Source: Deltaproteobacteria bacterium (GTDB lineage Bacteria > CG2-30-53-67). From it: a stretch of 64,000 nucleotides of DNA. The DNA lies in assembly GCA_013151235.1 (NCBI GenBank), contig JAADIO010000022.1, positions 4,256 to 68,255 on the forward strand, given 5' to 3'. Made by a program: the position numbers and the translations under genes. Positions 1,751 to 60,030 of the stretch are shown one piece after another (the first letter of the stretch is position 1; each line of letters begins with the position of its first letter). The notes under the pieces were generated by a model. The model was not told the DNA's origin, searched no databases, and saw only the letters and a list, made by a program, of their open reading frames with translations.

Positions 1751-4700
1751 ATGTCAGTCGTAAAGATCATCACCGAATCTTCCCGGCCCGGAAAACGCCG
1801 GAGAATCCTCAATGGCATCCTGCCCTATGTACGGTCGAACCGATGTTCCGAACTCCTGATTCTCGTCCCGTCAAACCGGATGGTTGAAGAAATCCGGGAG
1901 GCCCTGCTGCAACAGGAATCGGTACCGGGGTTTCTCGGGCTCCGGCTCATGACCTTTCTGGACCTTGCCCGGGACATATTTCAAAACGGTTCTTTTCCCG
2001 GTCGGATCGGCAGTACTCCGGCCCGGCAGTGGCGGCTTCATTCCATCCTCTCCACCCTGCCCCCCCTGAAACCGTTCGGGGAGATCCGGGAAACACGGGG
2101 AATGCTTTCTCTGACCACGGATTTTATCCGTACGCTCAAGGAAGCGGGAATCCCCCCGGAAGAATTTGAAGCATCTCCGCCCGTCCGGGACAATCCGCAT
2201 CTACGGGCCTTGGGGGAAATCTACCGGAAATACGAAAAATACCGGACGGCACAAGGAATCCTGGACCGGGAGGACCTCCTCCGCCTGGCGGCGGAGGGGA
2301 TCCGGAAAGCGCCCTCCCGATCTTTCACATCTCTCCGTGAGATCATCGTAACCGGGTTTTATGACTTTACACCTCTTCAAGCAGGGTTTCTCTCCGCCCT
2401 CTCCACCCTTTCGGATTTGAAAGAACTTTCCATTTTTCTGGACGCCCCGCTCTCCTCCCCGGTCACCGTGAGGAGCCTGAAGCGGTTGCAACATTTTCTT
2501 CCCGGAGCGGAGATCCGTTCTTCCCAGAGAAAAGAGGAAACCCCGGCGAAGGCCCTGCACCACTTGCAGCAATGCCTTTCGACCCCGGCGGTAAAACCCG
2601 AACCGGTCCCCGGTGATGAGAGCATCGAGCTCCTGGAGGTACCCGGAAGGTATCGCGAAGTGGAGGAGATGGCCCGAAGGATCCGGGAACTTCACAAAAA
2701 ACATGGACTTTCCTTCCATGATATGGCGGTCGTCTTCCGGAACCTCAGCGACTACCGGGAAAAGGTCCGGGAGATCTTCCGCTCTTTCGGAATTCCCCAT
2801 CAACTGACTTCGGGCCTGCCCCTCAGGAACAATCCTCTGATCAGGACCGTAACGGCACTGCTGGAATGTCCCCGTTCCGGATACCGTCGCGACGCAGTCT
2901 TTCGTCTATTGGCTTCTTCCTATCTCCGTTTCGAACCTCTTGAACGGAGCACGATCACACCGGAACGGATCGACACCCTTGCGCGGGAGGCCATGATTCA
3001 GGGGGGGCGCGATGAATGGAAGATGCGCCTCAAGTCACGGCTGGATCTACTCACGACCCGAGAACAGTACCTGCAGGAAAGCTACGGAACCGACCGGGAC
3101 GAAAAAGGACACAAGGAGAGGATCGACCGGTGCCGTTCGAAAATCAAGGATTACAGGAAATGCATGGATGTGCTGGAGAGCTTCTTTGACCTCTTTGCCG
3201 ATCTTCCGTCGGAAGCCACGATCCCGGAATTCATCGAACAGCTGGAGCATCTCCGGAACACCTTTCACCTGAAAGAACAGATCTACGAAAGAGACGATCT
3301 CGATCTGGTTCACCGGGACCAGACCGCCTTCCGAGAGTGGCAGGAACTTCTCGAACAGCTCTCCCGGGAACAGATGGGGTTACAGAGGGTCTCTCTTGCC
3401 GACTTCGTCCGGCTCCTCTCTCTCACGCTGGCGGAAAAGAACTACTCCCCCGACCCTCCGCAAGAAGATGCCGTCCTGGTGACGGACGCACTCGGCATCC
3501 GGGGGCTTTCCAGACCGGCGGTTCTGATCGGAGGATTGGTGGAAGGAATCTTTCCGCGGAACCATTCCCCAAGTCCCCTTTTCAGCGAATCCGACCGGCA
3601 ACGGCTCAACAAGCATTTCGGCCCCAACCGATGGATCCCCCTGCGCTCCCAGCAGCGGGAGGAAGAGGACCTCTTTTTCCGTTTTGCCGTCGGCGCCGCC
3701 GAACATTTCCTGATCCTCTCCCGTCCGAGGACCGACGGGGAAGGACACCCCCTCCTCCCCTCCAGCTACCTCGACATCCTCGGTGCCCTTTTCTCCCAAA
3801 GGATCAAGGTCACTTGCCGCTACTTGAACGATCCTTTACCCTCGGAAGACCCTCTCACGAACGAAAAGCCGCTATACCGTCCCGGCGAACTGCTCGAGTA
3901 TACCTTCCGGGCCCTCTCCCGTCCCGTCACGGAGGAACCGGATTTTCCCTCCCTCCTGAAGCTCCTTCTCCGGGAGCGGTGGGAGACCTGTCGTTCCCTC
4001 TGCCACGGCCTTACAGTGCAACAGGCTCGCAAAGAAGTAAACGGAAGCTATCTGGGACATCTCGGCCCCGACGCAGCCCGCGGAATCCGGCAGGGAGAAG
4101 GAAATTACTCCGTCACGGCCCTGGAACGATACGCCGCCTGTCCCTTTCAATACTTCTGTGAACGGGAACTCAAACTTCGCCCCGTGGAGGAAGTGGAGGA
4201 AGAGGTGGGAGCCCTTGATCTGGGAAGTCTCTATCACCGGATCCTGGAACGTTTTTTCCGTGAGATGGAGGGGCCGGTCACGAAATCCGCCCTTGCCGCC
4301 GCCCGAAAGAGGCTGGACCGGATCGAGAAAGAAGAACTGGCCCGGGTGGAAAAAGGGGGAATCCCCGGCCACCGGAAAATCTGGGAGATTCGGCAGACAG
4401 AGATCCGGGATGTCCTGGACCGTTTTCTTCTGGATGAAATAGAGGCCTTTGAATCAACGGGAGAAATCCCCTCCCATTTCGAAGTAACTTTCGGGATGAA
4501 GGATGTCTCCCGGAGAGATCCCCTCTCCTCGCCGGATCCGCTGATCCTTCCTTCGGAATCGGGCGAAATCCGGATGGAGGGAAAGATCGACCGGATTGAT
4601 CTGAAGGACGGGGAACCGCCGCACTTTTCCATCCTCGACTACAAGACGGGCGGCAGTAAACCGCCGGGGCCATCGGGAATCGAAAAGGGGGAAACCCTCC

Positions 4701-4975
4701 AACTCCCGGTCTATGCCGCGTGGGCGCTGGGGGCCTTCGCCGACGGCCGGGAACTCGGTCATGCCTCCTTTGTCCTGCTCCGCAAAGGGAGCAGGAAATG
4801 CCTGATCAATCCGGCCGGGCAAGGCCGGCAGGAGTGGAAAGAAATCTCCGAACGGTATGTCCGAAACTATGTCGAAGAGATCCGGCATGGACGCTTCCCC
4901 CCGGGAGAGAAAAACTGTCCCCCTTACTGTCGATACGGAGAGATCTGCCGGAAAGGTGAAAAGGGTCGGCCATGA
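1751..4975 (+). CDS. AddB/RexB-like PD-(D/E)XK nuclease with helicase-like N-terminal region and C-terminal Fe-S cysteine cluster
   Basis: 1074 aa; C-terminal ILDYKTG nuclease motif and four Cys (CPFQYFC ... CPPYCRYGEIC) as in AddB iron-staple nucleases; degenerate Walker-A-like N-terminus. No AddA partner adjacent. Confidence 0.7.
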   Translation: MSVVKIITESSRPGKRRRILNGILPYVRSNRCSELLILVPSNRMVEEIREALLQQESVPGFLGLRLMTFLDLARDIFQNGSFPGRIGSTPARQWRLHSILSTLPPLKPFGEIRETRGMLSLTTDFIRTLKEAGIPPEEFEASPPVRDNPHLRALGEIYRKYEKYRTAQGILDREDLLRLAAEGIRKAPSRSFTSLREIIVTGFYDFTPLQAGFLSALSTLSDLKELSIFLDAPLSSPVTVRSLKRLQHFLPGAEIRSSQRKEETPAKALHHLQQCLSTPAVKPEPVPGDESIELLEVPGRYREVEEMARRIRELHKKHGLSFHDMAVVFRNLSDYREKVREIFRSFGIPHQLTSGLPLRNNPLIRTVTALLECPRSGYRRDAVFRLLASSYLRFEPLERSTITPERIDTLAREAMIQGGRDEWKMRLKSRLDLLTTREQYLQESYGTDRDEKGHKERIDRCRSKIKDYRKCMDVLESFFDLFADLPSEATIPEFIEQLEHLRNTFHLKEQIYERDDLDLVHRDQTAFREWQELLEQLSREQMGLQRVSLADFVRLLSLTLAEKNYSPDPPQEDAVLVTDALGIRGLSRPAVLIGGLVEGIFPRNHSPSPLFSESDRQRLNKHFGPNRWIPLRSQQREEEDLFFRFAVGAAEHFLILSRPRTDGEGHPLLPSSYLDILGALFSQRIKVTCRYLNDPLPSEDPLTNEKPLYRPGELLEYTFRALSRPVTEEPDFPSLLKLLLRERWETCRSLCHGLTVQQARKEVNGSYLGHLGPDAARGIRQGEGNYSVTALERYAACPFQYFCERELKLRPVEEVEEEVGALDLGSLYHRILERFFREMEGPVTKSALAAARKRLDRIEKEELARVEKGGIPGHRKIWEIRQTEIRDVLDRFLLDEIEAFESTGEIPSHFEVTFGMKDVSRRDPLSSPDPLILPSESGEIRMEGKIDRIDLKDGEPPHFSILDYKTGGSKPPGPSGIEKGETLQLPVYAAWALGAFADGRELGHASFVLLRKGSRKCLINPAGQGRQEWKEISERYVRNYVEEIRHGRFPPGEKNCPPYCRYGEICRKGEKGRP

Positions 4976-5397
4976 TCCAGTGGATGAAATTACACGAAGT
5001 CGTCCTGCTTTGGATGGGCTTTGTGTCGATCCTCACCTTCGCGGGAACCCTCTTTACGATCCCGCTGCTGCTTGTCCGGATTCCGGAAGACTATTTTACC
5101 CGCACCGCCGGACCGCACAACCGTCGGCAATATCGTCATCCGGCAATCAGGATCTTCGTACTCGTGATCAAGAATCTCCTGGGAATTCTCTTCATTGCGG
5201 GGGGAATCGCCATGCTCTTTCTCCCGGGCCAGGGGATCCTGACGATCCTCATCGGAATCATTCTGACGAATTTCCCTGGAAAACCGGCCCTGGAACGGTG
5301 GCTGATCCGTCACAGCGCCGTCTATCATCCCGTGAACCGGCTTCGTAGATGGGCACATCACCCACCCCTGCAGATCCCCCATCGGGATAAAAAATAG
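4972..5397 (+). CDS. small integral membrane protein (PGPGW-like)
   Basis: 141 aa, two hydrophobic helices, LPGQG motif; ATGA overlap with upstream gene stop. Confidence 0.45.
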   Translation: MIQWMKLHEVVLLWMGFVSILTFAGTLFTIPLLLVRIPEDYFTRTAGPHNRRQYRHPAIRIFVLVIKNLLGILFIAGGIAMLFLPGQGILTILIGIILTNFPGKPALERWLIRHSAVYHPVNRLRRWAHHPPLQIPHRDKK

Positions 5398-5550
5398 CCT
5401 CCCGCCGGAATGTTACGGCGAGATCAATCCTCTCTTTCTCCCTCCTTTCATGAATTCTTCTAAACTTCCTCCCTCTTTCTGCCGATATGAGAGATAACGA
5501 TCTTCACATTTTCAGCACATCACGGATCATCATTTCAGGAAGGTAAGACA

Positions 5551-6024
5551 ATGCCAATGGTTGCCGCGGGAAACGACCTGTGTAAAAGATTGCAGAAAAA
5601 CTTCAGGTTTTTCAGTACTCTCCGGGAGGAAGAGGTGGAAGATTTTATGGAGTTTTGTGATTACCGGAAAAAACCTGCGGGAACAATGATCTGGCGGGAG
5701 GGAGATGAAGACAACTCGGCGGCATTCATCGTATCCGGACGGTTGGGAATCAAGAAGAAGACCGAATTCGAGGGAAAGCACGTCATCGTCGGGACCTATG
5801 GACAGGGTTCCGTCGTGGGGGAACTCTGTCTGTTAACCGATAACGCCCGATCCGTCAGTGCGGAAATTATCGAACCGGCGGAGATCGTGATTCTCTCCAA
5901 CCGGAATTTTGAGAAACTCCTTTCCAAACACCCCATGCTGGGACTGAAGCTTCTCAAACACATTTTTCTCACCACCAGCGCCAGACTTCGGCGAACCTAC
6001 GATCGGATCGCTTCAATCTTCTGA
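5551..6024 (+). CDS. stand-alone cyclic-nucleotide-binding (cNMP) domain protein
   Basis: 157 aa; GSVVGELCLL...ARSVSAEIIEPAEIVIL matches the CAP-family cNMP-binding beta-roll; no DNA-binding HTH. Confidence 0.8.
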   Translation: MPMVAAGNDLCKRLQKNFRFFSTLREEEVEDFMEFCDYRKKPAGTMIWREGDEDNSAAFIVSGRLGIKKKTEFEGKHVIVGTYGQGSVVGELCLLTDNARSVSAEIIEPAEIVILSNRNFEKLLSKHPMLGLKLLKHIFLTTSARLRRTYDRIASIF

Positions 6025-6219
6025 AAGCCTTCCCTGACTCGGGCCGACTCGAGAACCGTCCGGTCATGCTCTGCGATCAGGACGGCACCGGCCGACTGAA
6101 CCCACAATAGAACCGACAAGAAAAACAGTAATCGGTGAGTGCAAGATCTATCTTCTTCCGCACCTGATAGATAAAACCGCGCCGGAAATAACCGTCGGGG
6201 GCGTCCGGTCTCAGCTTGA

Positions 6220-6882
6220 TCATCTTCTCTGCGCTGATATGGCCCCCGCTGTATCACCGGTCATCCGGGCGGTCTCTTCCTGCACGAGATAGGCCGCGAA
6301 AAAATCCGGATGTTTCTTGATCAACTTATTCACCAGTTCCCGGGCATTAGCATACTTCTTTGCCTTGAGGTAATAACCGGCAAGGGCCATCCTCGTCTTG
6401 ACAATCTCCGGCTTGAGCTGCAAGGCCTTTTTTAATGACTCCTCTCCCAAGAGCGGCTCGTTGTTGAACAGGTGCGCTAGGCCCACCCGCAGGTAGAGAT
6501 CAGGATCGTCAGACCGGTCCTTCAGTACGACACAATACTCGTCGATCGCCGCACCGGGGCCCTTCCGCTTCATATCAAGGTGCGCCTTCTTCAGCGAGGC
6601 ATCAATCCGGTGGGCAATGAGCAGAATCTCGCCGATCGCAATCTGGGCGTCAAGGCGGTCGGGATCGAGTTCCACCGTCTTCAGCAGGCTTCCGTAGGCC
6701 TGCCAGGGTTGCTGCAGTTTGAGATATGTCAGGGCCATCTGATAATAGCCCTCCGCGTATTTCGGGTCAATCTGGAGGACATTCTTGAACTCAATCAGGA
6801 CCTCCTTGTATTTCTCTTCGCTATAGTATTTTTTACTCCGATTGAGATAGTTCGTTTTTTTCTTTGATGGTTCCGCAGGCAA
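6220..6882 (-). CDS. TPR-repeat protein
   Basis: 220 aa with repeated A..Y..G/L tetratricopeptide-like 34-aa units (AEGYYQMALTYLKLQQ, LYLRVGLAHL, RMALAGYYLKAKKY). Confidence 0.7.
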   Translation of the reverse strand: MPAEPSKKKTNYLNRSKKYYSEEKYKEVLIEFKNVLQIDPKYAEGYYQMALTYLKLQQPWQAYGSLLKTVELDPDRLDAQIAIGEILLIAHRIDASLKKAHLDMKRKGPGAAIDEYCVVLKDRSDDPDLYLRVGLAHLFNNEPLLGEESLKKALQLKPEIVKTRMALAGYYLKAKKYANARELVNKLIKKHPDFFAAYLVQEETARMTGDTAGAISAQRR

Positions 6883-8527: not shown

Positions 8528-9607
8528 CTAATTCCCGTTCCCCCGCGTTCCGAAGGTCCCCGGTTTCACCCATCGGTCGATCAGCGGGGTTGCGGCATTC
8601 ATCAGGAGAATCGCAAAGGAGACTCCTTCCGGATAGCCGCCCCAGAAACGGATCGTCATCGTGATCAGGCCGCACCCCACGCCGAAGACCAGCATCCCCC
8701 GGTGGGTCACCGGGCTGGTAACCAGGTCGGTGGCCATGAAGAAAGCGCCGAGGATCAGTCCGCCCGTGACCAGATGAAACTGCGGCGGAGCATAACGGTT
8801 CGGATCGATGCCGTGAAAGAGCGCCGCAATCACCAGAACCGTCCCTAAAAAGCTGAAAGGAATATGCCATGTGATCACCCGTTTCGCAATCAGGTAGAGC
8901 CCCCCGATGATCAGGGCCAGGGCCGAGATCTCACCTAAACTCCCGCCGACATGCCCCAGGAAGGGATCGATGAGGGAGAGATGAGCGATTCCGGAAAGGT
9001 CATGATGGAGAAGAATGGACTCCTTCATTCTTCCTAATGGCGTGGCCCCCGTTACGGTGTCGACCCCCCGCTGGAAAAAGGGCTGCGCCTTCGGCCAGGT
9101 CGTCATCTGGACGGGCCAGGAGATCAGGAGGACCACACGGGCGACAAGAGCCGGGTTGAACAGGTTGTACCCCAGCCCCCCGTAGAGCTGTTTTCCGATG
9201 ATAATGGCGACACCGCTTCCGACGACGCAGAGCCACCAGGGGGCGCCGGCCGGCAGATTCATGGCCAGCAAAATTCCCGTCAGGGCGGCACTCAGATCAC
9301 CAACCGTCACGGTACGATGCATGATCCGTTGCAGGAGTACCTCAAACCCGATCGCCGTAACGGTCGTAATCAGGAGGACCCGGAGGGCATCAAAACCGAA
9401 AAAATAGAGCCCGACGAGCAGGCCCGGTACCAGCGCCAGGATCACATTGTGCATCAACAGAGGGATCGACTCCCCGCTTGCAATATGGGGAGAAGAGGAA
9501 AGGACCAGCGGCTCCGCAGCGGCCTCTTCCTTTTTCTTGACCGGCGCCTTATTCCCTTTCTCATTCGGCGCCGGTTTCGACGTTGTCTCTTTTTTTTCTT
9601 CCGCCAT
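8528..9607 (-). CDS. rnfD: Rnf complex subunit D
   Basis: 359 aa polytopic membrane protein; Lys/Glu-rich N-terminal extension then the NqrB/RnfD core; conserved C-terminal TGATPLG motif. Confidence 0.9.
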   Translation of the reverse strand: MAEEKKETTSKPAPNEKGNKAPVKKKEEAAAEPLVLSSSPHIASGESIPLLMHNVILALVPGLLVGLYFFGFDALRVLLITTVTAIGFEVLLQRIMHRTVTVGDLSAALTGILLAMNLPAGAPWWLCVVGSGVAIIIGKQLYGGLGYNLFNPALVARVVLLISWPVQMTTWPKAQPFFQRGVDTVTGATPLGRMKESILLHHDLSGIAHLSLIDPFLGHVGGSLGEISALALIIGGLYLIAKRVITWHIPFSFLGTVLVIAALFHGIDPNRYAPPQFHLVTGGLILGAFFMATDLVTSPVTHRGMLVFGVGCGLITMTIRFWGGYPEGVSFAILLMNAATPLIDRWVKPGTFGTRGNGN

Positions 9608-22278: not shown

Positions 22279-23580
22279 ATGCAAAATAATGAAACGTCCT
22301 TTTCTTCCCTCGATCTCCCGGAGCAGGTCCTCCAGGGAGTCGAGGCGGCCGGGTTTACCCATTGCACCCCGATTCAGGCCAAGGTTTTTCCCCTGGCGCT
22401 GGAAGGGAGGGATGTGGCCGCGAAGGCCCAGACGGGGACGGGCAAGACCGCTGCCTTCCTCATCACGATCCTGACCCGGCTCCTTCGGAGCAAGAATCAA
22501 AAACGGGCCGGTTCCTCGCCGCGGGCCTTCATCGTCGCCCCCACTCGGGAACTGGCCGTCCAGATTTATGAAGAAGCCAAACTGCTCGGGCAGGGGACCA
22601 GTTTTTCCATGCTGGCCGTTTACGGCGGCGTCGACTACCAGAAGCAGCGGGACCGGCTCAAACTCGGTGTCGACATTCTGGTGGGGACACCGGGCCGACT
22701 CATCGACTATTACAAACAACGGGTCTTCGACCTGAAGGGGGTGGAGATCGTTGTCGTTGACGAAGCCGACCGGATGTTTGACATGGGCTTCATCAAGGAT
22801 CTCCGTTACATGATGCGTCGTCTCCCCCACTACACCAAACGGCAGTCAATGCTCTTTTCCGCCACCCTCTCCTACCGGGTGATGGAACTCGGCTACGAAC
22901 ACATGAACCTTCCCGTCCAACTCTCCGTTTCGGAAGAGAAAATCACCGCCGATAAGGTGGACCAGGTCCTCTATCATACGGGGATGGAGGAAAAGCCCCC
23001 TCTCCTGCTGGGACTCCTGAAACGGGAAGGGGGGAAAAGGGTCCTCCTCTTTGTCAACACCAAAGTCGTGGCCGACCGGGTCACCCGGCTCCTGAACGCC
23101 AACGGGTACAAGACCCGGGCCATCACGGGGGACATCCCCCAGACCAAGCGGCAGAAAATCCTTGAATCATTCAAGGCGGGAACCCTGCCGATTCTCGTCG
23201 CCACCGATGTGGCGTCGAGGGGACTTCATATCGAGGGAGTCACCCACGTTATTAACTATGACCTACCCCAGGACGCAGAGGACTATGTTCACCGGATCGG
23301 AAGAACGGCCCGTGCCGGCGCTTCGGGCAAGGCGATCAGCCTCGCCTGCGAACGGTATGTCTATTCATTGGAAGAGATTGAGGCCCTGATCGGGGGAAAA
23401 ATCCCCACGCGAATGCCGGACGAAGAACTCCTGGTCAAGGAGTATCAGGCCGCCCCGCCCCGGAAACATCGCAGACCCTCCCCCACAAAAAGAGGAGCGA
23501 AATCTTCATATTCCAAAGGACGGTCCCGACAGAAAAGAGGACAACCGTCGAGGAGGCCGCACCAAGGCAGAAGCTCCTGA
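22279..23580 (+). CDS. DEAD-box ATP-dependent RNA helicase
   Basis: Q-motif region, AQTGTGKTAAF (motif I), DEAD (VVDEADRM), SAT, HRIGRTARAG (motif VI); basic C-terminal tail. Confidence 0.9.
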   Translation: MQNNETSFSSLDLPEQVLQGVEAAGFTHCTPIQAKVFPLALEGRDVAAKAQTGTGKTAAFLITILTRLLRSKNQKRAGSSPRAFIVAPTRELAVQIYEEAKLLGQGTSFSMLAVYGGVDYQKQRDRLKLGVDILVGTPGRLIDYYKQRVFDLKGVEIVVVDEADRMFDMGFIKDLRYMMRRLPHYTKRQSMLFSATLSYRVMELGYEHMNLPVQLSVSEEKITADKVDQVLYHTGMEEKPPLLLGLLKREGGKRVLLFVNTKVVADRVTRLLNANGYKTRAITGDIPQTKRQKILESFKAGTLPILVATDVASRGLHIEGVTHVINYDLPQDAEDYVHRIGRTARAGASGKAISLACERYVYSLEEIEALIGGKIPTRMPDEELLVKEYQAAPPRKHRRPSPTKRGAKSSYSKGRSRQKRGQPSRRPHQGRSS

Positions 23581-55655: not shown

Positions 55656-56588
55656 TTACACATGGTGCCCTCCTTTCCCACCTGCACGACGACGAAGCCC
55701 CAACAGGCCGAAAAGCCCGGTCGCCAGGAAGACGAGGGACGAAGGCTCGGGAACCATTGCCGTGGTGGTAAGGGCGTTAAGATTGTCGCTCGACAACAGA
55801 CCCAGGTCCGCGGCCGTGATGGCGACATTCGAGGTGTTGTTCAGAAAAAGGTCCGCGGCCGATCCGTAGCCGGAGGCGGAAGCCAGCGAAAACAGAACAT
55901 CTCCCGTAACAGCATCAATGGCCAGCGCGTCTAAGTCCTGTCCCTGCTCAATACCAAGCGACGCGGCAGTCCGGAAGATGTTACCAAGACTGTTGAGATA
56001 GATGTTCCCATCACCGGCAAGGGAGAAGTAGACATCCCCGTCCTGACCCGGAACATAAGGTGCGGCACCGAGATCCACGGCATCGAGATCATCATTGTTC
56101 TGTCCGTAAGCGCTATCGTTCAGACCGTAGTCCTCACCATAAGTATCCGCAAAGTTGACCCCCGCAAGCTGGCCCGGGTTGGCGTCGAAAAGCGTCCCCA
56201 TCTGCCGACTGGTCGAGGCCTTCCATGCCACGTCCGTGCCCGAAGCGCCCTGGCTGTTCGCATCCACCGAGAAATAGACGTCGTAGATGCTTGCGGGATC
56301 AGCACTGTCAAACCCGAAGGAGAGGGCGTCGATCTCGTCGGCCGCGGACAATCCGAGATCGGCCGGCGTCAACGCCACGGTGTTGGTGCCGTCGAGCGGC
56401 GTATCGAAGAGATGGGCGCCGTCCGGACTGGTGCTGTATACGTCATTAGGCATATTCGTTCCGGGAGCAACGCCGATCCCGTCATTGAGCACCGAGAAGG
56501 TGTCGGCCCGGCCGATCGCCGGAAGAGCGAAGATACAAATCATTGAGACAACCGCCAGAAGGCGGAGCCTTAACCCATAACATTTCAT
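55656..56588 (-). CDS. PEP-CTERM sorting-signal protein 1 (Asp-rich secreted protein)
   Basis: C-terminus VPEPSSLVFLATGLFGLLGLRRR (PEP motif, TM, basic tail); signal peptide from ATG 56588; 16-bp gap to the cytochrome start. Confidence 0.75.
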   Translation of the reverse strand: MKCYGLRLRLLAVVSMICIFALPAIGRADTFSVLNDGIGVAPGTNMPNDVYSTSPDGAHLFDTPLDGTNTVALTPADLGLSAADEIDALSFGFDSADPASIYDVYFSVDANSQGASGTDVAWKASTSRQMGTLFDANPGQLAGVNFADTYGEDYGLNDSAYGQNNDDLDAVDLGAAPYVPGQDGDVYFSLAGDGNIYLNSLGNIFRTAASLGIEQGQDLDALAIDAVTGDVLFSLASASGYGSAADLFLNNTSNVAITAADLGLLSSDNLNALTTTAMVPEPSSLVFLATGLFGLLGLRRRAGGKGGHHV

Positions 56589-56875
56589 AATGTTTCCCCC
56601 TTGTATGATGTCATTCCCCTGCAATAATCCCGCCGGGAGCGAATGCCTCCGGCTTCCCCCTTTCCGGCAGGCAGCAGATTTGTGAACCTGCCGGAAACAT
56701 AACGTAAAATTGAACCATTGTAAAAGTACGATTTATGTTGGAACCATTTTGTCGGTCATTCTTCACCCCCCTCATATTTAGATGATCACGATATTTGACT
56801 TCAACTTCCGCAGCAAATCTTATGAATCACCCCCTTTCCCGATATAAGATCATTTTGCCCATTTGCCGTAAGCCG

Positions 56876-57697
56876 TCACACCCCGCGACGACGAAAGAAG
56901 ACCGCAAGTCCTGCCAGACCGCTTCCCAACAGCACCAGCGAGCCGGGCTCGGGAACCGTCGCAAGCTGGAGTTCAAGAACCATCTGGTAAGAGAGAGTAT
57001 CGAACCCACTTCCCGGCATCCGATTGCCCGTGGCGACAAGACGCAGGCTCTGACCGTCAAAGGGACGGCCGTCCACCTTGTAGGCGAAGTTGTAACTGCC
57101 ATTGGTCGGAGAGGTCCACGGGGCGGTCCAGAGACGTAAGGGCATACTGTTATCCAGACCGGTGTTCTGCGGGATGAAGACGGCGTTATTCATCACCACG
57201 TGCATCTCGCCGTCACCGGTCACCGTGCCGCCCGGCTCGAAGAAACTATTCCACGGAATGGTATACTGGTTGGCGTCGCCGGTCTCAGTGGAGTGGTCGC
57301 GGAAGTCGACCGTCCCAAGCAGTGTTCCCGGGACCGTATCCGGCAGGAAGGTGTCCGCAGGAATCGTCACCGTCGTACCCCCTCCGCTGATTACAATATC
57401 CATCGTGCCGCCCGGAATCGCCCATTCCAGGGAATGCTGGAAGTTAAAGCTACTCCCCGTGTCTCCACCGTTATATGGATCACTTGCGATTCCATCCACA
57501 CTCCCCGGAACGATGTTGAAGTGGTAGGTACCGTCGGTCCAGGCGACCGGCGTGGCATGGGCAGGGACAACCGCCAAGATGAAGAATAGCCCGAAGACAA
57601 CGGCGACCGCCGCTGTTTTTAAGTGTTGAATGATGATGGTGTGCCGCCACACCGGAACCTCCGCCGACAGGCGGAGTTTCCCCTTGCAAAGATTCAT
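56876..57697 (-). CDS. PEP-CTERM sorting-signal protein 2
   Basis: C-terminus VPEPGSLVLLGSGLAGLAVFFRRRGV; alternative GTG start near 57655 behind GGAGG. Confidence 0.75.
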   Translation of the reverse strand: MNLCKGKLRLSAEVPVWRHTIIIQHLKTAAVAVVFGLFFILAVVPAHATPVAWTDGTYHFNIVPGSVDGIASDPYNGGDTGSSFNFQHSLEWAIPGGTMDIVISGGGTTVTIPADTFLPDTVPGTLLGTVDFRDHSTETGDANQYTIPWNSFFEPGGTVTGDGEMHVVMNNAVFIPQNTGLDNSMPLRLWTAPWTSPTNGSYNFAYKVDGRPFDGQSLRLVATGNRMPGSGFDTLSYQMVLELQLATVPEPGSLVLLGSGLAGLAVFFRRRGV

Positions 57698-57994
57698 AAA
57701 CTTCCCCCCTATGATGTCATTCCCCTATAAAACGGTCTTGAACAATCGCGCCCGAGGCATCCGCCCCCGGCCCCCCTTTTTCTGCGGACAGGAATTTGCA
57801 ACCCTTTCAGATGACAATCATCAACGGCTCCCAATTCCCGTCATTAGATCGACTGGGTACCTCCTTTCTTCAATACGAACTAAAACGTCTCCATTTTCAT
57901 GTTCCTCAGGCTGCAGCACGAATCACTCCCCCCCGGTTTGATACTGCACGCCACGATCGGCCGGAACTTTATGCGGCCATATACAGCAGCATAT

Positions 57995-58010
57995 TGCAGG
58001 TTACATGCCA
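57995..58010 (-). promoter_or_regulatory. sigma-54 (-24/-12) promoter for PEP-CTERM gene 2
   Basis: Minus-strand TGGCATGTAACCTGCA versus consensus TGGCACG-N4-TTGCW. Confidence 0.6.
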
Positions 58011-58112
58011 ATTCTACCCAATGAGCGGCCAGAACAAATAAAAAGATAACATGATGAAAAGAAGGGACTTATTTCGGAGCAAGACAGCCCGTCAACCGGT
58101 TATGCAGGTATT

Positions 58113-58166
58113 CGATAGCGTGAATATATGAAATAATTTTCCTTTTTTGTGAAAAGATTTTCCCAC
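58113..58166. promoter_or_regulatory. conserved upstream element A with inverted repeat GTGAAAAGATTTTCCCAC (candidate enhancer/UAS)
   Basis: ~85% identical to 59500-59553; centred ~150 bp upstream of the sigma-54 -24 element. Confidence 0.55.
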
Positions 58167-58208
58167 TATTTGTGCGGATGCACGATTGTGCGGGCTCCAC
58201 AACGGATG

Positions 58209-58247
58209 CAGACAAAACAAAGGGGGCCGGCCCGAAGGCCCGCCCCC
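58209..58247 (-). terminator. Rho-independent terminator after PEP-CTERM gene 3
   Basis: Minus strand GGGGGCGGGCC-TTCG-GGCCGGCCCCC followed by TTTGTTTTGTCT. Confidence 0.75.
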
Positions 58248-58286
58248 TGATTCTCTCAGATCCTCAATACGCAAGCGACCGGAGCA

Positions 58287-59165
58287 TTATGCACCGGCGG
58301 CCTTTACGGAACGATGATGACGCCGGTGGAGACCGGCGAGAACCGGCAGGAAGGATGCGATCAGGAAAAAAGAGGAGGGCTCGGGTACGGCAGCGGCGCT
58401 GACCCGGATATTGTCCACGATCAGGCCGGTGTCGAAGCTCCCGTCCCCCTCATCTCCGACAAAAAATTCCAGGGTGTAGTCGCCGGCGCCCAGGATAGAA
58501 CTGGTGACCGTCTGGAACCCGCCGAGATAGGTCCCGTCGTAAAAGCTGCTCGCCGGAAGTGTGGGATCGCTGGTCGTCCAGGAAATGCCGCTGAAGTCAC
58601 CGGCGTATAGCGGTGCAAAGGAACCATCGTTGTAGCCGTCGTCCAAGGAGCACTGAACCAGGGAGATCGGAGCGCCCGCGGCAGGCAGGAGGCGGATCTC
58701 GGCGATATCGGCAAGGCCGGCGGTACTCCATCCATCGAACTCACTGGTAGCAATAGTCCAGTCGAGAGCCAGAGTGGAGGGGGCCGTAAGCGTAAAAGAC
58801 TGGCTCAAAGTGGCGATGTCGAACTCGTCGGCGCCGCTTCCGTCCCGGTCAAACCCCGAATCCACACCCGGCGGCATCCCGTTCACAAAGCTGTCGGGAC
58901 TGGTCGATAGGAGCGCAAACCAACTGCCGTCGGTTGCCAAATAGCCGGTCTGACCACTAATATTTTTATCCGGGCTATGGTAGTCGGGGTTGATCCGCTG
59001 GACGTTGCCGGAAGCGGTCCAGCCGGACAGGTCGGTTTCAAAAGAAAGGTTGGTGAGCCCCGTAGCGAAGGCCGCCGCCGGGACGAACAGACAGAAAACT
59101 GCGATCACCGCCATCCAGCGGAGTACGACATTCCGAATCTTTAGTTTTATACTGTATAACTTCAT
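58287..59165 (-). CDS. PEP-CTERM sorting-signal protein 3
   Basis: C-terminus VPEPSSFFLIASFLPVLAGLHRRHHR; N-terminal signal peptide. Confidence 0.75.
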   Translation of the reverse strand: MKLYSIKLKIRNVVLRWMAVIAVFCLFVPAAAFATGLTNLSFETDLSGWTASGNVQRINPDYHSPDKNISGQTGYLATDGSWFALLSTSPDSFVNGMPPGVDSGFDRDGSGADEFDIATLSQSFTLTAPSTLALDWTIATSEFDGWSTAGLADIAEIRLLPAAGAPISLVQCSLDDGYNDGSFAPLYAGDFSGISWTTSDPTLPASSFYDGTYLGGFQTVTSSILGAGDYTLEFFVGDEGDGSFDTGLIVDNIRVSAAAVPEPSSFFLIASFLPVLAGLHRRHHRSVKAAGA

Positions 59166-59377
59166 GAGTTTTCCCTTTTCTCTAATGAGTTACCCCCTTT
59201 TACATGATTTCCCCCCGAGAAGCCGCGTTCCTTTTTCCGGAGGCGCCGGTCCCCAACCGACCCCTTTTGCCGACAGGAATTCGTTTTTTATAACGACGTT
59301 TACCACCTCCTTTCCGGTGGAGCATCAAACCCCTTGTTTGCGTTCTCCGCAGAGGCCGCTTATCCGTATTTAATGAA

Positions 59378-59393
59378 AGCAGGTTCCGTGCCA
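59378..59393 (-). promoter_or_regulatory. sigma-54 (-24/-12) promoter for PEP-CTERM gene 3
   Basis: Minus-strand TGGCACGGAACCTGCT. Confidence 0.6.
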
Positions 59394-59499
59394 ATCCAAA
59401 CCGGAGCAAGGCAGGTTGGGGGAAAAACCGGGTAACCCACTGATAACATAAATAATTATTTTATACCACAAGAGACCGACAACGGCTCATTCCGCTATT

Positions 59500-59553
59500 C
59501 GACAAATCGAATATATGAAATGTTTTTCCTCTTTTGTGAAAAATTTTTCCACT
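59500..59553. promoter_or_regulatory. conserved upstream element B with inverted repeat GTGAAAAATTTTTCCAC
   Basis: Paralog of 58113-58166; centred ~150 bp upstream of the 59393 sigma-54 promoter; its 3' end overlaps a plus-strand -35 hexamer. Confidence 0.55.
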
Positions 59554-59582
59554 TTGACAACATTAAACGATCCCGTTATACT
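59554..59582 (+). promoter_or_regulatory. sigma-70 promoter TTGACA-17-TATACT for the membrane-protein/aguBA operon (possibly leaderless)
   Basis: Perfect -35 hexamer, 17-nt spacer, TATACT -10 ending 7 nt before the ATG at 59590; no SD. Confidence 0.6.
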
Positions 59583-59589
59583 GTGCCTC

Positions 59590-60030
59590 ATGAATGTTAG
59601 TTTAATGGAACGGTACAAACCGGCGGCCGACCGAAGAACACTCCTCCTGATCTCCGGGTTCATCTGGTCAGGCGTAGGGATCATGCTGGTCTCCTTTGCG
59701 CTCGTGTGGCTTTCGGCCCGCGGGGGAACGGCCGCCTACCTTCTCGGCGGATCGGGGCTCGTCCTCTCCTGGTTCATCCACCATTTCGGATTGACGAGGA
59801 TCGTCAACCGGAACCTCGGGCGGATCCTTCCCGTCCGGGATAAAAGATGCCTCTTCTCCTTCCAGCCCTGGAAGAGCTACATCATCATCCTCATCATGAT
59901 TGCCATGGGGGTTACGCTGCGCCATTCCAGCTTTCCGAAACCATACCTTGCCGTGATCTACATGGCTATGGGGGCCGCCCTGATTCTCTCCAGCACACGC
60001 TACTGGAAACACTTCTTCCGGAAATCATGA
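59590..60030 (+). CDS. small polytopic membrane protein of unknown function
   Basis: ~146 aa, 4 predicted TM helices; ATGA overlap with aguB. Confidence 0.5.
   Translation: MNVSLMERYKPAADRRTLLLISGFIWSGVGIMLVSFALVWLSARGGTAAYLLGGSGLVLSWFIHHFGLTRIVNRNLGRILPVRDKRCLFSFQPWKSYIIILIMIAMGVTLRHSSFPKPYLAVIYMAMGAALILSSTRYWKHFFRKS

Follow-up and report, generated by a model that had tools for sequence, protein, structure and literature searches.

We analysed a 64,000-nucleotide (nt) stretch of contig JAADIO010000022.1 (assembly GCA_013151235.1), here called the window, from a deltaproteobacterial metagenome-assembled genome (MAG). The minus strand of the window carries three genes of the PEP-CTERM type, which we number 1 to 3. 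Two intergenic regions, upstream of gene 2 and of gene 3, are very probably complete sigma-54 promoter-enhancer modules that would switch on these PEP-CTERM (exosortase-substrate) genes. Each region holds a -24/-12 promoter sequence, a box resembling the binding site of integration host factor (IHF) and, farther upstream, an element made of tandem dyads. Our reading is built on the sequences of the two regions, which are statistically rare and fixed in geometry, and on their conservation before unrelated PEP-CTERM genes in other organisms.

Candidate promoters and upstream dyads of two PEP-CTERM genes

The features of the two modules (A for gene 2, B for gene 3) are given below with their positions in the window.
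56876-57697, minus strand: PEP-CTERM gene 2, open reading frame (ORF) of 273 aa, TIGR02595 score 20.9 bits, predicted target of promoter A
58287-59165, minus strand: PEP-CTERM-like gene 3 (GXP58_04120), ORF of 292 aa, predicted target of promoter B
58010-57995, minus strand: predicted sigma-54 promoter A (gene 2), TGGCATGTAACCTGCA; predicted start about 57985, 5' untranslated region (5' UTR) of about 288 nt
59393-59378, minus strand: predicted sigma-54 promoter B (gene 3), TGGCACGGAACCTGCT; predicted start about 59368, 5' UTR of about 203 nt
58110-58166, minus strand: putative enhancer element, copy A; dyad 1 GGAAAATCTTTTCA at 58163-58150, dyad 2 GGAAAATTATTTCA at 58142-58129, block ATTCACGCTATCGAAT at 58125-58110
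59497-59553, minus strand: putative enhancer element, copy B; dyad 1 GGAAAAATTTTTCA at 59550-59537, dyad 2 GGAAAAACATTTCA at 59529-59516, block ATTCGATTTGTCGAAT at 59512-59497
58045-58060, minus strand: IHF-like box in module A, TTTTCATCATGTTATC, some 35-50 nt before TGGCA; match to WATCAA-N4-TTR partial
59433-59445, minus strand: IHF-like box of module B, TATCAGTGGGTTA, fits WATCAR-N4-TTR; offset shared with the other modules

Gene 3 scores below the TIGR02595 cut-off for PEP-CTERM (16 bits), yet its C-terminus is VPEPSSFFLIASFLPVLAGLHRRHH (VPEPSS..RRHH). Its product has a 100% identical match in the protein GXP58_04120 of a 'Deltaproteobacteria bacterium' MAG. Promoters A and B are intergenic, are oriented toward genes 2 and 3 and lie in long non-coding upstream regions. 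In both, the GG and GC doublets are exactly 10 nt apart within a TGGCAC-N5-TTGCW-like sequence. The pattern TGGCAYGNAACCTGC matched the window without mismatch at promoters A and B only, and with up to 2 mismatches it gave 4 matches against 0.52 expected. A 19-nt sigma-54 matrix was built from 87 published D. vulgaris promoters (PMC4641369, supplementary file 6), whose own scores have a median of 16.6 bits and a 10th percentile of 11.3. Among the about 128,000 positions on both strands of the window, promoter B ranked first with 19.0 bits (59395, minus strand) and promoter A second with 14.7 bits (58012, minus strand). These top two matches are the two -24/-12 16-mers that the original prediction, a first reading of this DNA, had proposed, and they lie exactly where it had placed them on the minus strand. 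The third-best match, GATGGCCCGGGTCTTGTAC (23106-23124, minus strand, 13.3 bits), is antisense within a DEAD-box helicase-like ORF (22279-23580) and is probably a chance match.

The upstream element consists of two tandem imperfect 14-bp dyads, GGAAAA-N2-WTTYCA, with starts 21 bp apart, followed by an ATTC-N8-GAAT block that includes an invariant TCGAAT. The dyads of copy A begin 153 and 132 nt upstream of TGGCA, and those of copy B 157 and 136 nt. The dyad pattern GGAAAANNWTTYCA occurs four times in the 64 kb, compared to 0.03 expected, and all four occurrences are inside the two elements as pairs 21 bp apart. A 45-nt degenerate pattern from both copies matched solely 58122-58166 and 59509-59553 in the window (0.00 expected). 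Independently, a repeat finder returned a 95-nt direct repeat, 58069-58163 versus 59456-59550, with 74% ungapped identity. The two copies are 80% identical (gapped, over a 60-column core), though genes 2 and 3 have only the PEP-CTERM tail in common. The element is described here somewhat differently than in the original prediction. The inverted repeat noted there is real, and is only one of the two tandem imperfect dyads; the distances of both copies to their promoters, taken as equal, are nearly so, dyad 1 being 153 nt from TGGCA in copy A and 157 nt in copy B. The identity of 85% given there is about 76% ungapped over the same 54 nt by our hand count, and the conservation reaches about 30 nt beyond these 54 bp, toward the promoter.

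Recurrence of the module in other organisms

The module recurs at five further sites, making seven modules in total. Two of these sites are in loci orthologous to the window, L006 (GCA_964644985.1) and L008 (a Joint Genome Institute metagenome contig). Two are in L061, the groundwater MAG Hainich-H32-bin143-1 (which holds contig CAKKPE010000002.1), and one is in L084, a metagenome contig. The order in L006 is gene 3, terminator, element, promoter, leader and gene 2, and the gene 3 orthologue has 76% identity. L008 keeps the terminator, the element and the promoter. The counterparts of promoter A are TGGCACGTAACCTGCA in L006 and TGGCATACAACCTGCA in L008, and a 16-mer identical to promoter B lies upstream of the L006 gene 3 orthologue (84-99). 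The terminator is the following feature of the window, and an equivalent hairpin is present in both L006 and L008.
58224-58241, minus strand: intrinsic terminator of gene 3, GGGCC-loop-GGCCC then a T run, between gene 3 and enhancer copy A

A 219-residue PEP-CTERM protein (TIGR02595, 23.0 bits) is encoded downstream of the first L061 module. The second (3948-4138, in the region 3925-4140) has three dyads and the promoter ATTGGCATCTTTTTTGCT (20.3 bits), and precedes an 800-residue secreted protein (4149-6551) without a PEP-CTERM tail. In L084, three dyads lie upstream of a 262-residue PEP-CTERM protein (TIGR02595, 23.9 bits). A PEP-CTERM-type gene is found downstream at four of the five further sites, counting the 800-residue L061 protein that has no such tail; the L008 contig ends before any gene. 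The ORF translations, compared by eye, indicate that the N-terminal domain of the 800-residue protein is similar to that of its 219-residue neighbour. In the second L061 module, the block is ATTC-N6-GAAT and lies upstream of the dyads rather than downstream.

When all seven modules were stacked on TGGCA without gaps, the dyads began at -153 to -157 and at -132 to -136. L084 and both L061 modules have a third dyad, at about -175, and an ATTC-N8-GAAT block usually accompanies the dyads. The geometry of the module is rigid within about 2-4 bp across lineages. ATTGGCA opens all seven promoters, and a box WCAW-N4-TTR is found at -50 to -35 in every module (7/7). The invariant columns of a six-way alignment belong to the dyads, the TCGAAT block, the box (T..CA....GTT) and the promoter (ATTGGCA..AA..TGC). 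Pairwise identities are 64-90% for the element and 65-95% for the promoter, and 35-61% for the spacer between them. The flanks are 14-50% identical in non-orthologous pairs, and the upstream flank is 72-79% identical among the gene 2 orthologues. The element of copy A is 90% identical to that of L006, 83% to that of L008 and 70-73% to those of L061 and L084. The mature domains of the proteins downstream of the modules are unrelated, the PEP-CTERM tail alone being in common, so gene duplication does not account for the shared DNA. The shared element behaves like a regulon signature. That the same promoter, dyad array and spacing are found at five further sites, with a spacer that has drifted to 35-61% identity, strengthens the enhancer-plus-sigma-54 reading of the original prediction.

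One further sequence is confined to the gene 2 copies.
58172-58183, minus strand: palindrome GTGCATCCGCAC, shortly before dyad 1 of copy A, at -173
This GTGCA-N2-TGCAC palindrome was found only in the three gene 2 copies, namely the window, L006 (GTGCATCTGCAC, about 1339-1350) and L008 (GTGCATTTGCAC, about 1332-1343). It is absent from copy B, and its slot in L084 and L061 holds the third GGAAAA-type dyad. The palindrome may be a site for a second regulator.

We also searched for the module in larger collections. Among 90 loci, only L006, L061 and L084 had the paired-dyad pattern; the other 87 lacked it, 74 chance matches among them. These chance matches came from a genome scan with a 21-base pattern, which proved too loose, against one genome per species of 185,579 species, a collection that does not include the source MAG. 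Of its 75 matches, one (L061) is a true homologue and 74 are chance matches in AT-rich genomes, many of them in one conserved Clostridia coding sequence. A metagenome scan with a 24-base pattern returned a single match, L084; it missed L008, so the collection is incomplete for this. The named relatives of the L084 protein belong to Sedimentisphaerales/Planctomycetota (46-54% identity), and the named Sedimentisphaerales locus examined, L089 (= L090), has a plain sigma-70 promoter without the module. L088, which encodes a 72% relative of the L084 protein, has a sigma-54 promoter without this enhancer.

The arrangement resembles NtrC-type enhancers such as that of glnAp2, where tandem dimer sites share one helix face at 100-200 bp from a downstream -24/-12 promoter and activation proceeds by DNA looping and ATP hydrolysis. 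The bend site that such enhancers have ahead of their promoter may have its counterpart here in the IHF-like box. The window differs from these enhancers in the sequence of the sites and in its targets, which are surface proteins and not enzymes of nitrogen assimilation. In the mechanism that the sequence suggests, activator binding, DNA bending by IHF, the start sites of transcription and the reach of the operon are all predicted. Sigma-54 RNA polymerase would form a closed complex on ATTGGCAYG-N4-CTGC. Dimers of an NtrC-family enhancer-binding protein would occupy the two dyads (three in some relatives), WGGAAAA-N2-WTTYCA. With dyads 21 bp, or two helical turns, apart and with their centres on the upstream side of the -24 GG at about 147 and 126 bp, these dimer sites would be on one helix face roughly 150-175 bp upstream of the predicted start. 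The AT-rich spacer, whose IHF-like box lies about 40 bp before the promoter, would bend the DNA so that the ATPase could reach the polymerase. Upon a signal, the activator would oligomerise, loop to the closed complex and open it by ATP hydrolysis.

The predicted transcripts involve two further genes.
55656-56588, minus strand: PEP-CTERM gene 1, ORF of 310 aa from ATG, TIGR02595 score 21.8 bits
50651-55663, minus strand: giant multihaem cytochrome of about 1,670-1,700 residues; likely ATG at 55663, preceded by GGAAGG
Promoter B would give a gene 3 mRNA that appears monocistronic because the terminator follows gene 3. Gene 1 has no promoter or enhancer of its own that we could find upstream, and neither a sigma-54 site nor a terminator was detected in the spacer between genes 2 and 1 (56589-56875). 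The stop codon of gene 1 overlaps the cytochrome ATG (55663). From these observations, transcription from promoter A probably passes from gene 2 by read-through into gene 1 and on into the translationally coupled giant cytochrome gene, and the PEP-CTERM genes and the giant cytochrome gene probably form one operon. The same neighbourhood of PEP-CTERM genes, giant cytochrome and SurA-like rotamase was observed in two more distant orthologous loci, L003 and L007.

Several points weigh against these predictions. The -12 region of promoters A and B is CTGC instead of TTGC; CTGC is also present at -12 in the mapped Aquincola pepA promoter (PMC9850573). The predicted 5' UTRs of about 200-290 nt exceed the published distances from the -24/-12 motif to the start codon, with a mean of 71 nt and a maximum of 221 (PMC1569441), and given these lengths the true start sites may be nearer the genes. 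Outside copy B, the IHF-like box fits the E. coli consensus WATCAA-N4-TTR only partly, and we treat IHF binding as an inference for this reason. No RpoN, sigma-54 activator, PrsK, PrsR, PrsT or exosortase gene was found among the large ORFs of the 64-kb window. The seven modules come from about four lineages, and both large collection scans were otherwise without relevant matches. Finally, all carriers of the module are uncultured, and the source organism is known only as a MAG.

Identity of the activator

An activator of PEP-CTERM promoters has been described. Haft et al. (2006, BMC Biol 4:29) reported that proteobacterial PEP-CTERM genes are single-gene operons with long upstream regions (PMC1569441). 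These regions contain a PEP-CTERM box (motif 1) of 17 nt, TGT-N11-ACA with a TTTACA end, which is sometimes repeated and was predicted to be the PrsR site; its spacer to the -24/-12 motif is 62.8 +/- 10.6 nt (range 32-92), and many PEP-CTERM upstream regions were left unexplained by the box (PMC1569441). DVUA0057, the D. vulgaris orthologue of PrsR, binds upstream of PEP-CTERM genes in DNA-affinity-purification chip (DAP-chip) experiments (PMC3333781), and its predicted sites are TGTCGGA-N4-YTTACA (PMC4641369). In Aquincola, pepA is RpoN-dependent and has a mapped start site with TGGCAC/CTGCTT (PMC9850573).

The window shares much with this PrsK-PrsR-PrsT system (TIGR02915/02916/02917): single PEP-CTERM genes behind long non-coding stretches, a sigma-54 motif of the -24/-12 type preceded by a dyad-like activator site that is repeated in some cases, and a regulon-like spread over unrelated PEP-CTERM genes. 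The general enhancer-sigma-54 design of the original prediction is right and is already known in kind because it was published by Haft et al. (PMC1569441). The repeat sequence and its spacing differ from the published PrsR operator, and both are found again in other uncultured bacteria. The window has a 15-bp TGGAAA-N3-TTTYCA rather than the 17-nt TGTCGG-N5-TTTACA, about 99-118 nt from the promoter rather than about 63. Its leaders of about 200-290 nt also contrast with the mean of 71 in the PrsR system, and prsK, prsR and prsT were not seen nearby.

The original prediction had suggested that the elements could be operators of the PrsK/PrsR pair, which would make the dyads a lineage-specific form of the published box. 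PrsR is the sole activator so far linked to PEP-CTERM promoters (PMC1569441, PMC3333781). The published sites of PrsR orthologues are also tandem and about 19-20 bp apart (DVUA0036 at -194/-213 and DVUA0030 at -540/-560; PMC4641369), and the half-sites are alike, TGTAAA in the PrsR box and TGGAAA here. We therefore scored eight upstream regions with a PrsR matrix made from 28 published sites of DVUA0057 orthologues (TGTCGG-N5-TTTACA; training minimum 13.8 bits, median 17.2). In four of the eight, the best match fell on dyad 1, with scores from -1.6 to 8.1 bits; the top match of copy A lies elsewhere. No site in the eight regions reached the training minimum. The best score on a dyad was 8.1 bits, and the best score anywhere, 12.4 bits in L084, is on non-dyad sequence. 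The spacing is also outside the published range of 32-92 nt, since about 118 nt separate the end of dyad 2 from TGGCA, and about 99-103 nt the end of the ATTC-N8-GAAT block. Moreover, the dyad is 15 bp long and the PrsR box 17 bp, and the window lacks prsK, prsR and prsT. Because the published box was reported to be uniform from beta- to delta-proteobacteria, a strongly divergent form in a delta-like MAG would be unexpected. The matrix scores, the spacing and the lack of a PrsK/PrsR gene in the window thus do not favour the attribution to PrsK/PrsR, which we regard as rather doubtful. A divergent PrsR stays in consideration through the resemblance of the half-sites and the tandem sites about two turns apart.

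Since the operator differs from the PrsR box, the activator would be either a divergent form of PrsR or, with slightly greater likelihood, another protein. We tentatively propose, with somewhat less than even confidence, that the dyad array is the operator of an unnamed enhancer-binding protein. Exosortase substrates of several uncultured lineages would then form a second sigma-54 regulon that is independent of PrsR. Sites of the CRP, Fis, TyrR and NifA types were also considered for the dyads and were rejected by eye, as the spacing fits none of them.

PEP-CTERM/exosortase proteins are abundant in sediment and biofilm bacteria, and their functions and regulation are almost unstudied. The module is a concrete candidate for an additional PEP-CTERM control circuit with a sharply defined operator, and its targets include a probable operon with a multihaem cytochrome of about 1,700 residues. 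If a PrsR-independent regulon of this kind exists, a giant cytochrome operon, and with it possibly extracellular electron transfer, would in the lineage of the window be under the same switch as PEP-CTERM surface proteins. The general view of sigma-54 control would be unchanged, a known design being extended to a new operator. A defined operator would also make it feasible to trace the activator through phylogenetic profiling of complete genomes.

A different enhancer is found in more distant orthologous loci. L001-L004 and L007 carry gene 3 orthologues of 66-72% identity in synteny with the giant multihaem cytochrome. Similar to the window, they have a near-identical promoter, TGGCAYGCCACCTGCA, and two upstream dyads with the half-site TGGAAA / TGGTAA. 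Unlike the window, their dyads are 18 bp long (TGGWAAC-N4-GTTWCCA), are 33 bp apart and lie at -147 and -114, and a second sigma-54 promoter, TGGCATGAGGTTTGCT, is about 70 nt from the start codon. In these loci, a gene of about 450 aa for an activator with PAS_4, Sigma54_activat and HTH_8 domains adjoins the PEP-CTERM pair, whereas none is present at the corresponding place of the window.
L003, 150-325 and 1030-1206; L001, 8700-8870; L007, 160-320: enhancer regions, two TGGWAAC-N4-GTTWCCA dyads before TGGCAYGCCACCTGCA
L003, 3124-4479, minus strand; L004, 3327-4682, minus strand; L007, 2550-3899, plus strand: PAS-type activator gene

This PAS-type activator is not PrsR by the NCBIfam model: it scored 237 bits against a cut-off of 502, and only its ATPase and DNA-binding region matched. 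A homologue search with it returned no match tagged to the source MAG (GXP58), and two orthologues with 59-62% identity have unrelated neighbourhoods and no such dyads. The PAS-type activator is not assignable to the element of the window. The comparison does show an exchange of enhancers between lineages at orthologous PEP-CTERM promoters. Two observations concern single loci of this group. In L003, the entire enhancer-promoter unit is present twice, about 880 nt apart. In L001, three head-to-tail copies of GCACGCGAAAGAAAGAYT (9180-9240) follow the proximal sigma-54 promoter and precede the first PEP-CTERM start codon; the counterparts in L003 and L007 have no such copies.

Other roles considered for the element, and its neighbourhood

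The element is AT-rich, and it might only shape the promoter region, through intrinsic curvature of its DNA or by binding a nucleoid protein of the IHF/HU type. Phased A and T tracts run throughout the element, and the entire 150-bp upstream region is AT-rich in a genome of 57% G+C. However, invariance is not limited to the A/T tracts but extends to the G and C residues on which the dyad symmetry depends (GG...CA), which makes this explanation improbable. A 14-bp dyad repeated every 21 bp in two or three copies is instead the signature of dimer-binding sites, and a separate IHF-like box is already present closer to the promoter.

Copy B of the element abuts a promoter on the opposite strand.
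59554-59582, plus strand: sigma-70-type promoter, TTGACA-17-TATACT, 11/12 consensus positions; abuts copy B; predicted to serve the orf146-aguB-aguA operon
The sigma-70 promoter that the original prediction had seen next to copy B is thus present. Its -35 TTGACA (59554-59559) is 4 nt from dyad 1, and coordinate arithmetic puts the centres of dyads 1 and 2 near -46 and -67 of this promoter. The element could therefore be an operator or UP-like element of the divergent orf146-aguB-aguA promoter, or a shared bidirectional control region. The proposal of a shared divergent-promoter element fits copy B only, however, as the other copies are in other contexts. Copy A lies between the gene 3 terminator and the gene 2 promoter with no divergent gene, and in L006 and L008 the element is likewise behind a terminator without a divergent gene. 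In L084 and the second L061 module, the upstream ORF is codirectional; the first L061 module is about 210 nt from a divergent sulfatase-like ORF. What all seven copies have in common is a sigma-54 promoter at a fixed distance, and a role centred on the divergent operon is very improbable. Given where dyads 1 and 2 are centred, it is possible that an activator bound for the sigma-54 promoter secondarily affects the orf146-aguBA promoter. The orf146 ATG (59590) is 8 nt past the -10 hexamer, and the orf146 mRNA is therefore predicted to be leaderless or nearly so. This gene encodes a 146-residue membrane-like protein with no family match, and its stop codon overlaps the aguB-like start (ATGA, 60027-60030). 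The aguB-like and aguA-like genes are named from their best matches, which are under the equivalog cut-offs.

That the similarity is a neutral duplication remnant, or a small dispersed repeat of the miniature inverted-repeat transposable element (MITE) kind, without a regulatory role, is scarcely credible: the leader blocks shared by genes 1, 2 and 3 do indicate local duplication of non-coding DNA at this locus, but only two element copies are present in 64 kb, no terminal inverted repeats or target duplications flank them, the conservation is block-wise and not uniform, the same blocks and spacing occur in other organisms with spacers 35-44% and flanks 14-43% identical before unrelated genes, the 185,579-species scan gave one related locus and no dispersed family, and every copy is tied to a sigma-54 promoter. 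The repeat-family alternative raised in the original prediction falls with it.

The leaders themselves share sequence. Over about their last 100 nt, the leaders of genes 1, 2 and 3 (56589-56700, 57698-57800 and 59166-59285, minus strand) have blocks in common. These comprise CRAATYC-CYGTC, a GC-rich hairpin, GYYGGRGRC-loop-GYYYCCGGC, and GGGGAATGACATCATAGGGGG adjoining the start codon. Rfam gave no matches at gathering scores in the whole window, and none in 56500-59700 even at E values up to 1; the long leaders are therefore not a known riboswitch. The RNAalifold consensus of the leaders is weak (-15.6 kcal/mol), with compensatory changes in 2 of 18 pairs. Gene 1 has the leader block though it is without a promoter or enhancer of its own. 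Matching blocks are present in the L006 orthologues at 232-352 and 1712-1817, and the shared block may be an element of translational or stability control.

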